This document shows, in pieces, positions 45,355 through 50,396 of a stretch of DNA of 64,000 nucleotides. The translations under genes were made by a program, and so were the position numbers. The notes beneath the pieces were generated by a model. It was not told where the DNA came from. It saw nothing but the letters and a program-made list of their open reading frames with translations, and did not search any database. Each line of letters starts with the position of its first letter. The stretch's first letter is position 1. The DNA lies in contig CM059432.1 of NCBI GenBank assembly GCA_030390025.1, positions 39,992,001 to 40,056,000 of the forward strand, read 5' to 3'. The DNA comes from Squalus acanthias. Taxonomy: Eukaryota.

Positions 45355-47703
45355 ATGTTCGGAGGCCTGATCTTGCTCGCCCTGTCTGGGCTGAGCCTCG
45401 CGAGAAGGGGCGACACCGAGGACCACCGCATCTTCGGATGCTCCGGAAGGACGGCGCCCCTAGCCCACGATGGAAGTGGCCTACGCGAGGCGGATGAAAT
45501 TGCCTCGTATACTCACGAGGGGAGCTGGCCTGGATGGCTGGGGTCAAACTCGACCCAGTACTCGAGCCAGACCGGTTTTACATATGGGGAGGCCTCCCTC
45601 CATTGCCCGAGGATACGGATCGTCACCCCAAGGATCAGCGTCACCGTGGGCAAAAGGATTTGTTTATCATGTAAGGGCAACGTTCCCCTGGATAGGTGGT
45701 GGTGGCTCAGAAAATTAAGCAAAGACATGGGGAACCCCAGGGTAGAATGGGAAAGGTTAGGGAACGACACCCACAGGACCATCACGGGGAGCCAGGGAGG
45801 GTTAAGTGTGCACTGAGACAAATGGTGGGAACCGGATCAGGGGATCTATGTCTGTATGTGGGGTTCAGAGAGAGTCTGCCCCACGGGCGTTTCCATCATT
45901 TTCCACAGCCAGTGGCAGGATAACGGGAGGGGGATGGACTGGGGGTCGCGCCTGGATGCATGCGCGATCCCATACTCCCCAATCTCGGTTAATGCCACTG
46001 AATTAGTGACCCGTCCCCGACAGCCCCTGCCCACGACCCCGACGTCACGGACTGTAGCAGAGGGATGCCCCGCCACCACCAAGGGACCAGGGAATGGCCT
46101 GGTGCTGGTACCCACAGACCAGGTGCTCTATCAAGGGGTGCATTACGCGGTGGCCTCGGTGATCTTAAATCTCACTGAGGTGCACTTGCCCGCGTGGTGC
46201 CCTGCAGAGACCGCTAAACTATATCAAGCCCTCTTAAGGGAAACATTTCAAAAGTTTTACGAATTCGATTTTGCGGAGATCGATAAGACCAAATTGTATA
46301 CACATAGCCACGAGGCTTGGGACGGGGTGGGGAGACAGAGAAGGGGTACTGTTAATGATGTTTTAACAGGTTTTAATGCAGGGTCTTCAGTTATTAATAG
46401 TTTAGACGACATTGAACTGCAGACGCAGATCAACGGTCTGAAGACCCAATTAAAGAAGGTCTTAACTGATGAGAATAAGGTAGTGGGTTCAGAACTGCAT
46501 GAAGACCAGGCCATGACTCTCCATCTAAAGGAGATCATAGCGGAGCTGGAGATACATGCAAAGACGGTGAATTCGCTCATTAGGGAGGATCGGAATGCGT
46601 CCGATCAAGCTGCGCAGAACGAGGTGTGCGTACTGTACGGGGCATGGTTGCTGGGCGAGGGCCGCAGAAATCTGGAGGACTTAAAACAGGGTTTGGTCCC
46701 CTCCTGGATCAGCAACAAGCACCTCACAGCCCTCCACCCTTTTGAGAACGCATTAAGCCCATGCCAGCTCCAACTAGCTTCCGAGGCCTACCCAGTCCCA
46801 GTGGACTGTGGACGTTCCAACCACACTATCATGGGGATAATAGTAAGGATGCCTGTCATGGGCGGGACGGCCCGACCCGCACCGGTATACAGGGTGGAGA
46901 ACATTGGTGTCATTCAGGGGGGTGTACACGTTCGTTTTACAGCGGTCCCGCCCTACGTCATAAAGTGGGATCACGCTATGACGGGTACTGACCTCTCGGG
47001 GTGCCGTAGCCGGGGAGCACACATCATCCTGTGTCCCCAGCACTTGAATGCCTATTCGAAACCACAATGCGGGTTCAGAGCTGCTTACGCAAAACCTATA
47101 AATTGTACCATGGAAGCCATGGCACAAGGCCATGTTCCCCCACAGGTAGCATATATAGGAGGTGGGACATATTGCGTCACCACAGGAGCGTCTCACTACC
47201 AGCACGGACAGCACAGCTGGTGCGCGGTGAGTGACAGCAGCTTCTGCTTTAAACCCAAGGCAGAAGTTCAAGTGGCCCAGGAACGAATTGTCCCCATTCC
47301 TGAACCATCCACGGTTCACCTAACTGTAAGAGAGAATTTCACCAACCTCCAAAAGTATGTGGCTCACTTCGGCTACCAGATTCCCCCTCTCCCAGAACAC
47401 CTCATTAAACTATTAAGGGCCGTAGTAGTGTCGCAAAAGCATTTTTATACACTGGAGCAGAAGACTATCCAGATAGGGGCCGATATTCTGGATATTACGA
47501 CCCCACCCTGGTGGGACATCTTTGAGAATATCGAGGTCCCCTCCTGGATTCGTCTGGCATCACACGCGCTCGTAATTTGTCAGCTCGGGATCGTCCTCTA
47601 CCTGGTTTACGTCCAGTGTCAGAAAAAGGGTCCCGAGGCAGTAGCAAGAACCCAAAGGGTCTGGAGGGACCAGTATGCTCGGGTAGACGAGACACTCGCG
47701 TGA
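45355..47703 (+). CDS. env: Envelope glycoprotein: signal peptide, Ig-like domain, F-type class I fusion protein; one in-frame TGA at 45814-45816
   Basis: ORFs 45355-45816 and 45856-47703 share a frame; MFGGLILLALSGLSLA; furin site RQRR (46333-46344); heptad repeat; Cys-rich region; C-terminal TM. Confidence 0.88.
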
Positions 47704-48040
47704 ATTCCGTGTCGCACCACTTACGAGTGATGGCGGCCTAATTTTATTATTTTTCATAAAGATGGTCCCCTCCGTTTGTTGTTTTTTTTTTGTTTGATTA
47801 AAAAAAAACTGTTTTATCCCAAGTGGTGCAGGGGTATGTTGGACCCCCTCCGTGCTGGGATTACTGGAAAAGAATTTGTTTTCCTATCTAAAATGCCTGC
47901 TGTACACTGCGGTTATTCTCCAAGTGGGGGAATGTACGTGTCGGGGGAATTGGGATAGGTAAATAAAGGGGAAGGTTGTTTGCGACAGTCAGAAATTTTG
48001 TTCACCTCGTATGGACACTTCAAGCAAGTTTAAGTCTCCA

Positions 48041-48050
48041 CAGGGGGGAC
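48041..48050 (+). promoter_or_regulatory. Polypurine tract
   Basis: CAGGGGGGAC immediately before the 3' LTR. Confidence 0.75.
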
Positions 48051-49066
48051 TGAAAGGATTCGCAAAATTTCATGTGTTCCCCCCCCCCCCAAAGATTTTT
48101 TGTTGGACTTATTAATAAGAAACCCTGGTCAGACTGAGTTTTAAAATCCAGGGCATAAAATGGCCGCGGTCGGACCTCGTGACCGAGAGCTTGGCAGTTT
48201 CATTTCAGACGCTGGGAAGCCATCAGTTTGTGTATTCCGGTGTCTGCAACAGGACAGGACCTTTCCTTATGCATTACAATCAGGTCTATGCATAAGGCTT
48301 TCAAGGTGTTTGCTCAAGTAATCGGCGGGGACATTGAGACGGGGCTGGGCCCATCAACGGAACTGTTCTGGACAATCATCCAACCTGTCGAACAATAGGG
48401 TGACAGTTGAAGAACTGGTATCACACAATTACTGGCCATCTAACATGATGGGCCGAGACCAGTACCTTTTGTTAAAATTCATCATGCCCAGATCAGACAA
48501 TAGAAATGTACTGATCGGTAGGAAGATTAGGGCGTCCGGGAGGGGTATAACTGGGAAGACCCAGCCATTTCTCGCTCTCTCTGCCTGGACCCGGTTCGCT
48601 CTGTCTGCCAGCAGCCCAGAAAGAAGACTACCAGAAACGCCACGTGTCGACGGCAGAAACAGAGCACAGGGCCAGGTTTTTCCATCCATTTCACCGGTGA
48701 GCATTATCTTTCTTCTGGCTGTCGCAAGACAATTTTAGTTAGGCATAAGGGTGGGGATTAATGGGGATATTGCTAAAACTGTAATTTTAGGATTTTCCCT
48801 CAATGTGTCCGTTCTCTTCCCATGCTAAGTGTAAAACCGTCTTCATATGATACAGTTTCTCTGTAGTTTTACTTCTGTAAATAAACATTGGTTTTCCTCG
48901 CACCAATCCACGGGTCTGTTCGTTTGTCCTTATCGCCGCTCGATAAGTCCTGGGCTCAGAACTAATAATAAGGGGATAGCGATTCGCAACCGCACAGTGG
49001 GCAGACAAGTCCAGGAAAACATAACTGGCTGACCTACAAATAAGCCCGAGACAAAAACCCCTTACA
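48051..49066 (+). repeat. 3' LTR (1016 bp)
   Basis: About 98% identical to the 5' LTR by eye (roughly 17 substitutions and 3 small indels). Confidence 0.97.
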
Positions 49067-50396
49067 GTCCTACCCCACTAAAGGCCAAGAATGGAGAGGT
49101 ACTCATCAAGGACAGGGAGGCAGTCAGTGCCCGCTGGAAGGAGCACTTCGAAGATCTCCTTAACCGAGACTCAGTCTTCGCCGCGAGTGTCCTCAACTCC
49201 ATCCCGCAGCATGCTACCCACCACCATCTCAGCACAATCCCAGCCTGGCATGAGGTTGAAAAGGCCATCCGACAACTGAAGAACAAGAAGACCTCAGGAG
49301 CAGATGGAATCCCTGCCGAGGCGCTAAAGCATAGCGGAGAAGCACTACTGGCGCGAATTCATGAACACATTTCTCTTATCTGGAAGGAGGAGAGCATGCC
49401 AGGGGATCTCAGAGATGCCGTAATTGTGACCATCTTCAAGAAAGGTGACAAGTCCGATTGCGGTAATTACAGAGGAGTTTCCCTGCTGTCTGCCACAGGG
49501 AAAGTCATCGCAAGAATCCTCCTCAATCGCCTTCTCCCAGTGGCTGAAGAGCTCCTCCCAGAGTCACAATGCGGATTCCGCCCACTAAGGGGCACAATGG
49601 ACATGATCTTCACCACGCGCCAATTACAAGAGAAATGCAGGGAACAGCGCCAACCGCTGTACATGGCCTTCTTTGACCTCACAAAGGCCTTTGACACGGT
49701 CAACCATGAGGGATTATGGGGTGTCCTCCTCAAATTCGGCTGACCTCAAAAGTTTGTCAACATCCTCCGCCTGCTTCACGACGATATGCAAGCCGTGATC
49801 CTGACCAACGGTTCCACCACAGACCAATTCATGTAAGGACCGGGGTCAAGCAAGGCTGTGTCATCGCACCAATGCTCTTCTTGATCTTCCTTTCAGCAAT
49901 GCTCCATCTCACCCTCAGTAAGCTCCCCGCTGGAGTGGAGCTAATTTACAGAACAAACGGGAAACGGTACGACCTCCGTCGCCTCCAGTCCAGATCCAAG
50001 GTCGTTCCTTCCTCTGTCATCGAATTACAGTATGCAGACGACACTTGCGTCGGCGCACACTCGGAGGTCGAACTTTAAACCATCGTTAACACCTTCACCG
50101 AAGCGTACGAGAGCATGGGCCTTACACTAAACATCCGTAAGACAAAAGTTCTCTACCAATCTGCCCCCACCACACAGTACTGCCCCCCGATTATCAAAAT
50201 CCATGACAAGGCCTTGGACAACGTGGACCACTTCCCATACCTCAGGAGCCTACTGTCAACAAGGGCAGACGTTGATGAGGAAGTCCAACACCGCCTTCAG
50301 TGTGCCAGTGCAGCCTTCGGTCGCCTGAGGAAGAGTGTGTTGGAAGACCAGGACCTCAAACCCGGCACCAAGCTCATGGTCTACAGAGCAGTAGTA

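Follow-up and report, generated by a model that had tools for sequence, protein, structure and literature searches.

A shark retroviral envelope gene with a predicted immunoglobulin-like domain ahead of a paramyxovirus F-type fusion core

RESULTS AND DISCUSSION

A provirus with an env gene and only a remnant of pol

We analyzed a stretch of 64,000 nucleotides of Squalus acanthias DNA (contig CM059432.1, positions 39,992,001 to 40,056,000), which we call the window and number from its first letter. An LTR provirus at positions 41068-49066 contains an env gene on the forward strand (45355-47703; Table 1). In a BLAST comparison of the two flanks, the LTR pair (41067-42081 versus 48050-49067) is 97.8% identical over 1019 columns. 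The LTRs of the window copy differ by about 2%. Residues 582-598 of the gag frame match the Pfam family zf-CCHC (E = 4e-4). The pol gene is reduced to a remnant without reverse transcriptase, tether, and most of RNase H, and no match to an integrase core was found in this remnant (44009-45100). Compared by BLASTP with the pol of a sibling subfamily (L053, 1076 aa), its residues 1-84 correspond to residues 1-90 and its residues 84-188 to residues 779-875; the remnant also has a weak match to RVP (Pfam). The pol of the sibling subfamily includes RVP, RVT_1, RT_RNaseH_2, RNase_H, Integrase_H2C2, and rve, with env downstream (L046). The list of open reading frames (ORFs) has no second envelope-like ORF between pol and the 3′ LTR of the provirus.

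Lokiretroviruses are retrovirus-like LTR elements of lower vertebrates (Wang and Han 2020, PMC7947760, main text). Their gene order, LTR-gag-pol-env with a tether (a degenerate RNase H) followed by a second RNase H, is found in the sibling subfamily, whereas the window copy has no reverse transcriptase. Overall, the provirus is young, resembles lokiretroviruses, and lacks the greater part of pol; the stretch first annotated (45355-46080) is the 5′ third of its env gene.

Table 1 Features of the provirus and its env gene (positions in the window)
Feature	Position	Strand	Remarks
Target-site duplication GTCC, 5′ copy	41064-41067	+	Identical four bases at 49067-49070
5′ LTR (TG...CA)	41068-42080	+	BLAST between flanks; ends read from sequence
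gag	42084-43904	+	Coiled-coil-rich N-terminal half, one CCHC zinc knuckle; open frame 42039-43904
pol remnant	44009-45100	+	Protease start fused to RNase H end; BLASTP
env	45355-47703	+	782 codons including one internal stop; same frame open in other copies
Signal peptide, residues 1-16	45355-45402	+	Hydrophobic N-terminus; predicted helix 2-15 (full-length model); cleavage point inferred
Pre-Ig segment, residues 17-84	45403-45606	+	Beta strands, one N-glycosylation sequon (N65)
Predicted Ig V/I-like domain, residues 85-185	45607-45909	+	Pfam Ig_3, CRTAM IgV, AlphaFold model, Foldseek/VIA-align
In-frame TGA, codon 154	45814-45816	+	At end of predicted E strand, before F strand
Linker, residues 186-237	45910-46065	+	Pro/Thr-rich 219-233, sequon N213; low pLDDT in both models
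F2-like part, residues 238-330	46066-46344	+	Ends in furin-type RQRR (46333-46344); distant relatives start aligning here
F1-like subunit	46345-47700	+	Model secondary structure; Foldseek to F proteins
3′ LTR	48051-49066	+	Purine run just before; flank BLAST, ends read from sequence
Target-site duplication GTCC, 3′ copy	49067-49070	+	Matches 5′ copy

The env frame is interrupted by a defect of the window copy

The env gene starts in frame 1 with an ATG at 45355 and runs for 153 codons to a TGA (45814-45816), beyond which 628 further codons precede the terminal stop codon (47701-47703); an ORF of 615 aa opens at 45856, the next ATG downstream of the TGA. Reading the frame confirmed the initial annotation in that the 153-aa and 615-aa ORFs share it and are divided by this TGA alone. 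When 30 genomic places, the window's included, were aligned across the same 786 bases, codon 154 was a stop only in the window and in a single further copy; of the 29 places besides the window's own, 28 have a sense codon there. Among the 146 best N-terminal matches that were scored, out of 6374 candidates, 108 are free of stops over a 262-residue stretch (hand count). We conclude that the ORFs at 45355-45813 and 45817-47703 are one env gene and that their arrangement is not due to chance. The TGA is a nonsense mutation and a defect specific to the window copy, because in 28 of the 29 other copies this position holds a sense codon; it does not hide the N-terminal domain by design. There is next to no probability that the TGA functions by programmed read-through, as a selenocysteine codon, or as a deliberate split of a secreted N-terminal protein from the fusogen: retroviruses do use stop-codon read-through between gag and pol, and one further copy shares the stop, but read-through and selenocysteine are ruled out by the sense codons in the other copies, the codon is open in all divergent subfamilies and in a related skate protein, the stop falls within a predicted beta sandwich, and the downstream ORF has no signal peptide.

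The C-terminal part of Env is predicted to be an F-type fusion core

At the end of the F2-like part, R327, R329, and R330 of the putative furin-type cleavage site are invariant in alignment A2, and the RQRR site (327-330) is retained in relatives, with a hydrophobic fusion peptide (331-350) immediately downstream. Along with this peptide, the F1-like subunit has a long helix (334-444), beta domains (about 477-645), a second helix (680-711), a membrane anchor (732-753; 47548-47613), and a tail. A model of the full-length protein is confident over residues 241-310 and 420-650, with pLDDT values of 78-92 over residues 241-300 of the F2-like part. A Foldseek search with the fusion core gave 236 matches at E ≤ 0.001. 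Only F proteins of paramyxoviruses and pneumoviruses occupy the top rows, led by hPIV3 F (E = 3.3e-11), with RSV, NDV, Nipah, and Langya F behind it. No retroviral TM is among the Foldseek rows listed for the core, and the list of cysteines has no adjacent pair in the C-terminal subunit. A gamma-type fusion subunit was not what lay behind the Ig-like domain; the core matches paramyxovirus F.

The likeness to paramyxovirus and pneumovirus F (1ztm, 3rki, 3maw, 8tve, and others) covers the predicted fold of residues of about 238-720, the furin-type cleavage ahead of the fusion peptide, and a long helix in the center, which postfusion F also has, at a sequence identity of about 10-14%. Viral F2 has roughly 100 residues, whereas the N-terminal subunit of the shark Env has about 314, with an extra Ig-bearing module of ~220 residues for which paramyxovirus F has no counterpart. 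PF00523 gave no row at E limits from 0.1 to 10 in the window's env, nine copies, and 17 relatives (Pfam), a profile search of the PDB with the F part gave no match, and Baculo_F matched weakly in one chimeric relative (E = 0.0011). We therefore predict a class I fusion core of the paramyxovirus/pneumovirus F type from its modeled fold, on which the assignment depends because PF00523 matches none of the copies or relatives scanned.

The lokiretrovirus Env has been described as similar to paramyxovirus and pneumovirus F, and its elements are a signal peptide, a cleavage site of the form R-x-K/R-R, a fusion peptide, a coiled coil, and a membrane anchor (main text of PMC7947760). The shark Env has all of these elements, as well as the F likeness, in common with it. 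In contrast to the shark copies and their relatives, which are linked to F by predicted fold, the lokiretrovirus Env matches PF00523 in sequence (E = 2.2e-7). The words immunoglobulin, cartilaginous, shark, and receptor are absent from the main text of that paper.

An Ig V/I-type domain is predicted in the N-terminal subunit

The initial annotation had recognized elements of an Ig fold on both sides of the TGA, and all of them are present: a B-strand cysteine (C106, within RICLSC, residues 101-106), a C-strand tryptophan run (W116-118, within RWWWLRK, residues 114-120), and an F-strand D-x-G-x-Y-x-C (D161 to C167). The Pro/Thr-rich stalk that it had described lies at residues 219-233, and the paramyxovirus-F-like fusion core found by Foldseek is next. 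An AlphaFold model was built for residues 17-242 with the sequence of a naturally open copy and an alignment of 14 closely related rows. Its mean pLDDT is 61.5 (core, 69-90), three of the five models are below 41, and in the full-length model the N-terminal region is below 60. The pre-Ig segment forms strands at residues 8-13, 20-23, and 32-43 of the construct.

The rows listed by Foldseek for the N-terminal model are V domains, the best being a shark IgNAR V domain (E = 2e-4). In a second look after Foldseek, VIA aligned the model with CD79b (Z = 9.1, rmsd of 1.9 Å, 87 of 88 residues), and a Foldseek-independent search of 48,161 chains listed 50 rows, all of them Ig V/I-type domains or entries containing antibodies or nanobodies (Z = 8.3 to 7.5); according to the tool's own note, VIA Z values of 8-9 are near the level that models without a true match can attain. 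The anticipated fold across the stop is thus predicted by AlphaFold: residues 85-185 would form an Ig V/I-type domain, a two-sheet sandwich that superposes on solved Ig domains.

The sequence support for this domain is weak. Pfam Ig_3 matches the domain in eight of eight copies, but with 18.2-18.6 bits (best E = 0.0026) these matches stay below the gathering cut-off of 30; the Pfam family ig scores 12.9 bits, and across the eight copies no curated Ig family model was reached above its gathering score. Among PDB sequences, the IgV domain of CRTAM aligns over the entire domain (E = 0.033), with the Cys, Trp, and D-x-G-x-Y-x-C in register, and the language-model neighbors of the region are Ig families (0.91). 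Chance motifs combined with a model artifact of the shallow alignment could also produce such a picture, as the sub-threshold sequence matches and the three poor models would allow. We consider this quite unlikely, given that Ig_3 recurs in every copy scanned, that the signature residues fall in register in a full-domain alignment, that the language-model neighbors are Ig families, and that two structure searches returned Ig domains only.

The Ig module is conserved among subfamilies and in a skate

The pN/pS values between subfamilies are 0.16-0.27 for the Ig domain and 0.12-0.17 for F1, compared to 0.27-0.36 for the pre-Ig segment and 0.35-0.65 for the linker, which has the highest values. 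Identity between subfamilies is 67-71% in the N-terminal part versus 77-80% in the F part, and the skate protein carries the Ig module at 65% identity. The Ig module is under purifying selection across subfamilies and has been kept in the skate.

The profile of the full env has 54 relatives among 1.84 billion representatives. The closest protein relatives of this envelope family, which is abundant in the S. acanthias genome, come from skates and sharks. The more distant full-length relatives are shark and frog proteins that can be aligned only over the F core, starting at about position 224-238, and one relative (P0044) has an F core without any N-terminal module. A comparison of the Ig module with the N-termini of six distant relatives by hhalign gave probabilities of 0.2-1.6%. 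Weak signs point to Ig-like N-termini in some distant relatives as well: UniRef gives P0013 the name "Ig-like domain-containing protein", and six of its nine weak PDB matches are antibody VH domains (E = 0.05-0.85); P0040 has a V-set match (E = 0.045); and the language-model neighbors of the P0019 N-terminus are Ig clusters, at only 0.84-0.86.

The Ig-bearing module may be a receptor-binding head

Paramyxovirus F requires a separate attachment protein, whereas the shark provirus has no separate attachment-protein gene. We propose that the Ig-bearing N-terminal module is a cis receptor-binding head of an F-type Env, a reading to which we assign a probability of roughly 0.6. In open copies, env would be translated into a single 782-residue precursor, from which the signal peptide would be removed and which a furin-type protease would cut after RQRR330. 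The N-terminal subunit (17-330) would remain attached to the F1-like C-terminal subunit, which has the putative fusion peptide, the heptad helices, and the membrane anchor. Within the N-terminal subunit, the first ~220 residues would form a beta-rich module around the predicted V/I-type core (85-185), connected to the F core by the Pro/Thr-rich linker. This module would bind the receptor in cis, as HN, H, or G does in trans for paramyxovirus F, a role that would parallel that of the IgV-like receptor-binding domain of gamma-type retroviral Env. In the window copy, the nonsense codon truncates the predicted Ig domain ahead of its F and G strands, and since the 615-codon ORF downstream lacks a signal peptide, a working Env cannot be made from this copy.

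The module could instead be a cap or shield, stabilizing the prefusion trimer or carrying glycans, with entry triggered otherwise, for example, by pH or a protease. The existence of P0044 suggests that an F core may work alone, and three N-glycosylation sequons (N65, N137, and N213) lie on the module and linker. However, a pure shield need not keep its Ig core under the constraint described above (pN/pS of 0.16-0.27), and receptor binding is the usual task of the N-terminal subunit in class I fusogens. We regard a cap or shield as unlikely and favor the receptor-binding head.

N-terminal IgV-like receptor-binding domains have been reported for gamma-type Env (RBD-C of MLV/FeLV, HERV-Pb1) and for alpha-like Env, where the domain was captured from host SIRP (available text of 10.1101/2024.03.17.585361). 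Like the shark module, these domains are of the Ig V type, form the N-terminal end of the surface subunit in a class I Env, and are followed by a proline-rich linker; they also resemble it in folding on their own and in varying between lineages. They differ in being mounted on gamma-type or alpha-like cores, while the core of the shark Env is F-type by predicted fold. No retroviral receptor-binding domain is among the 50 best rows for the N-terminal model in the viral structure library BFVD. The earlier remark that no standard description of this architecture exists thus stands for the F-type core behind the domain but not for Env-borne IgV-like receptor binders, which the available text of 10.1101/2024.03.17.585361 describes. 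An Ig-like domain on an F-type Env appears to be undescribed so far: we found no description of one on a retroviral Env in the literature searched, which covers part of the published main texts.

Lokiretrovirus-like elements have a single envelope gene, and the literature searched does not address the way in which they attach to cells. An Ig-type head on an F core would be a concrete, testable answer and, if true, a second, independent case of a retroviral Env with an Ig V-type receptor binder. It would also belong to an envelope family that is abundant in its genome and whose nearest relatives come from a host group, skates and sharks, unnamed in the main text of PMC7947760. More tentatively, we can imagine that F-type envelopes of sharks, skates, and frogs attach via swappable Ig-superfamily heads, that IgV receptor use arose independently on two unrelated fusion machines, gamma-type and F-type, and that the multiplication of the pol-less, env-bearing form in this genome reflects spread by germline reinfection, helped in trans. 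This wider picture is possible, though we would not bet on it.

Origin of the Ig domain

An exhaustive HMMER search of the 1.84 billion representatives with the full-env profile found no host donor; only env fragments and chimeric gene models (P0002, P0005, P0008, P0010, P0015, P0017, P0024, P0030, and P0047) matched its N-terminal 230 positions. When longer proteins were searched by words for the 111-aa Ig piece, three of 39 candidates were hits, all env-derived, and in the window's own genome the best 146 of 6374 candidates were provirus copies only. We estimate that a 90-residue Ig match needs about 45 bits to pass in a library of 1.84 billion, and the absence of a donor from these searches is weak evidence. 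The initial annotation had inferred a captured host Ig domain with a possible role in receptor binding or as an immune decoy. Host capture is unproven because no donor was found, and nothing specifically supports a decoy role. An origin by duplication of the Ig-like domain within F itself was rejected (hhalign probability of 0.4% between the Ig region and the F core).

The canonical signature does suggest descent from the cellular Ig superfamily, and SIRP capture by a retroviral Env offers a precedent with a known donor (available text of 10.1101/2024.03.17.585361), in contrast to the shark module. A recent capture from the host, serving as an immune decoy or ligand mimic as Ig-like proteins do in pox-, herpes-, and adenoviruses, nevertheless has little chance of being correct. 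All matches found for the region are env-derived or chimeric, and a capture would have to be old, since another species and subfamilies with an identity of only 67-71% have kept the domain; judged by these sequence comparisons, the Ig domain is old within the env lineage. Known viral decoys usually stand as separate proteins rather than within a fusogen. The best BFVD neighbors of the N-terminal model are indeed Ig-like proteins of large DNA viruses (poxvirus hemagglutinin, the CMV RL11 family, and adenovirus CR1), but all are weaker than E = 0.001, with nothing in that library at or below this value. Unlike the shark Env module, these Ig-like membrane proteins stand alone and are not fused to a fusogen.

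The immunoglobulin-like head of the envelope

Translation of 45355-47700 gives a single frame of 153 residues, a TGA (45814-45816) and 628 further residues, closed by a stop at 47701-47703. The initial annotation was correct in describing two ORFs in one frame split by this TGA, and its downstream ORF of 615 aa is explained by the first ATG after the TGA, at 45856. The Cys, Trp, D-x-G-x-Y-x-C and Pro/Thr motifs that it quoted are all found in the translation (Table).

Features of the provirus and of its envelope (Env) protein
Feature	Window position	Env residues	Remark
LTRs	41068-42080 and 48051-49066		TG...CA; ends read directly
Target duplication			4 bases, GTCC; flanks the LTR element; sequence at the ends
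gag frame	42084-43904		CCHC knuckle
pol remnant	44009-45100		363-codon frame; first ~84 protease residues fused to the end of RNase H
RICLSC		101-106	Ig B-strand Cys motif; read from translation
RWWWLRK		114-120	Trp run; read from translation
D-x-G-x-Y-x-C		161-167	read from translation
Pro/Thr-rich stretch		219-233	read from translation
Purine run			just upstream of the 3′ LTR

Sequence evidence for an Ig domain, although weak, is consistent. Eight of eight copies match Pfam Ig_3; the best E value is 0.0026, and the score of 18 bits falls short of the cut-off of 30. When the 111-residue region is used as a profile, it recovers the CRTAM IgV domain at E = 0.033; 91 of the 101 CRTAM residues align, and the Cys, Trp and D/E-G-x-Y-x-C positions coincide. 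The nearest language-model neighbors are Ig families at 0.91, a value that shuffled proteins reach 4 to 10 times per 100.

Structure prediction started from a naturally open copy, L004 (residues 17-242), aligned with 13 other rows; like the full-length model below, the result is a prediction from a shallow alignment. Three of the five models were poor; the best has a mean pLDDT of 61.5, with 69-90 at model residues 71-150 (Env 87-166). Among the Foldseek matches listed against the PDB there are only V domains (antibody VL and VH, shark IgNAR V, PD-1, CD8; best E = 2e-4, three matches at E ≤ 0.001). Over Foldseek's 996 alignable chains, VIA-align gives Z ≥ 8 for 145, among them CD79b (Z = 9.1, rmsd 1.9 Å, 87 of 88 residues). 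In a Foldseek-independent search of 48,161 chains, the 50 rows listed are all Ig V/I or antibody- or nanobody-containing entries, including CD79b, CD8, TCR V, IgNAR V, BTLA, titin, obscurin and NCAM2. Z is 8.3 at the top and 7.5 at rank 50; models without a true match also reach a best Z of 7-8 but typically fall to 4-5 at rank 50. We therefore put the probability of an Ig V/I-type fold at about 0.8, which leaves the complete absence of an Ig domain improbable. The V-set and the I-set are indistinguishable at these scores. The Ig fold proposed in the initial annotation is thus predicted structurally, while its Pfam match stays below the cut-off. Shark and skate IgNAR V score near the top in the structure searches (E = 2e-4, Z = 8.0-8.4), tied with many other V domains at 12-15% identity, and are a lead only.

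The B strand carries a C-x-x-C (C103 and C106; window 45655-45672) that is invariant in all aligned copies. The CXXC of gamma-type SU makes a labile bond to TM. The Cys positions of the C-terminal subunit of the window Env include no adjacent Cys pair to account for the extra B-strand Cys.

The predicted F-type fusion core

In the full-length Env model (45 rows, mean pLDDT 60.6), confidence is high for residues 241-310 and 420-650. A long helix spans 334-444 and another helix 680-711; the model also has beta domains and a membrane helix. All listed Foldseek rows are paramyxovirus or pneumovirus fusion (F) proteins (236 matches at E ≤ 0.001), led by hPIV3 F (3.3e-11) and postfusion RSV F (1.8e-10), followed by NDV, Langya and Nipah F. 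A basic site, RQRR (327-330), precedes a hydrophobic stretch and is kept as R-x-K/R-R in distant relatives. Env gives no match to Pfam PF00523, and no F protein turns up with a PDB sequence profile; the assignment therefore stands at the level of predicted fold.

The available text on lokiretrovirus Env describes an F-like protein with signal peptide, cleavage site, fusion peptide, coiled coil and anchor, and mentions neither an Ig domain nor receptor binding (PMC7947760, PMC9040795); the same silence holds for the available parts of a review and of an errantivirus study. IgV-like receptor-binding domains are well described on gamma-type Env, one of them captured from host SIRP (10.1101/2024.03.17.585361). 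The window family resembles gamma-type Env in its predicted head and lokiretrovirus Env in its predicted core. The window env appears to join two known traits, an IgV/I-like head and an F-type core. The initial annotation knew of no standard description of this architecture; that holds for F-type Env in these portions of the literature, but IgV-like heads as such are known.

Modularity, selection and proposed function of the head

When 1.84 billion representatives were searched by profile, 54 matched at E ≤ 0.001. Over the N-terminal 230 positions, every match is an env fragment or a gene model in which env pieces are fused to zinc-finger or other genes. Within the genome of the window itself, the search for a host donor of the Ig domain, with the best 146 of 6,374 candidates scored, yielded provirus copies alone. 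Distant full-length relatives from sharks (Mustelus, Chiloscyllium) and frogs (Pelodytes, Mantella, Bombina) align only from position ~224-238 on, the point at which the F core starts with a conserved Cys-Pro. Their own N-terminal parts of 149-188 residues have no profile similarity to the Ig module (hhalign probability, 0.2-1.6%), and one relative, P0044, passes from signal peptide directly to F core, lacking the module. Some of these parts may be Ig-like too: the Chiloscyllium protein bears the UniRef name "Ig-like domain-containing protein" and has weak antibody-VH matches, and P0040 has a weak V-set match. Env is conserved apart from its head, which varies and is exchangeable.

Gene models P0003, P0008, P0011 and P0034 join env pieces to Niban, C2H2 zinc-finger, cadherin or F-box genes; such models, from sharks and other species, may be annotation artifacts or env-derived exons.

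Synonymous sites are close to saturation, and for this reason pN/pS was computed from uncorrected proportions, for six between-subfamily pairs. F1 gave 0.12-0.17 and the F2-like core 0.19-0.22; for the N-terminal parts the ratio was 0.16-0.27 (Ig domain), 0.27-0.36 (pre-Ig segment) and 0.35-0.65 (linker). These ratios show that selection kept the N-terminal module during lineage divergence and that the module changed somewhat faster than the fusion machine.

Viral F proteins rely on a separate attachment protein, and the ORFs of this element include no second envelope gene. As the best reading, we infer that the head binds a receptor: Env would be a class I fusogen whose N-terminal subunit bears its own receptor-binding head. 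In support of this reading, the head lies N-terminally in the cleaved surface subunit and is carried by a flexible linker rich in Pro and Thr. The module could alternatively serve as a non-specific cap or as an immune decoy; we prefer receptor binding to both.

The in-frame TGA across genomic copies

In the 3.7-Gb genome, the F part yielded 12,327 first-look candidates (70 scored) and the N-terminal 262 residues 6,374 (146 scored). The best 30 N-terminal places, the window's own included, were aligned base for base. At 45814-45816, 28 of the 29 other places have a sense codon; the exception is one copy on C20 (L016/L003), which shares the position of the stop with the window and differs at the neighboring residue; either shared descent or recurrent mutation may account for it. 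The window residue immediately before the TGA itself deviates from a position identical in all other aligned copies. By hand count, 108 of the 146 scored matches have no stop within the N-terminal stretch and 38 have at least one; those checked (L015, L022, L031, L036) lie at other codons. Four more divergent subfamily copies, each read over its whole length (L039, L041, L042/L046, L047; N-terminal identity, 67-71%), are open here, and so is a skate protein of 516 aa (Rhinoraja longicauda; 65% identity). Because of these sense codons, open subfamilies and the open skate protein, the TGA is attributed to decay of the window copy and is no feature of the gene. A functional stop is correspondingly rejected, and the initial view of an Ig domain hidden by the TGA does not extend to the gene. 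The stop lies where the predicted E strand ends, ahead of strands F and G, and the ORF downstream of it has no signal peptide; the window copy cannot yield a working Env.

The provirus around env

Env belongs to an LTR element whose two direct repeats (41067-42081 and 48050-49067) share 97.8% identity across 1,019 columns; within it, gag is followed by the pol remnant and then by env. By BLASTP against the 1,076-aa pol of a sibling subfamily, residues 1-84 of the pol remnant correspond to pol 1-90 and residues 84-188 to pol 779-875. The window copy therefore lacks reverse transcriptase. This ~8-kb form is without RT, tether and most of RNase H, and no integrase core was detected in it. In the sibling subfamily, a single frame encodes RVP, RVT_1, RT_RNaseH_2, RNase_H, Integrase_H2C2 and rve, an arrangement with two RNase H domains as in retroviruses and lokiretroviruses. 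LTR-to-env spacing is nearly equal in at least one other copy (L051, on C12; 4,246 versus 4,288 bases), and therefore the pol-deleted form, keeping gag and env, has apparently itself multiplied, presumably aided in trans.

The N-terminal half of the gag frame (window 42300-42800) has long coiled-coil-like stretches that Pfam coiled-coil families match weakly; the lokiretrovirus paper notes that some members have an smc-like gene. An RVT_1 frame (49448-50078; Pfam, E = 1e-18) follows immediately after the 3′ LTR; it looks non-LTR and LINE-like, and the provirus may lie inside or beside an older retrotransposon.
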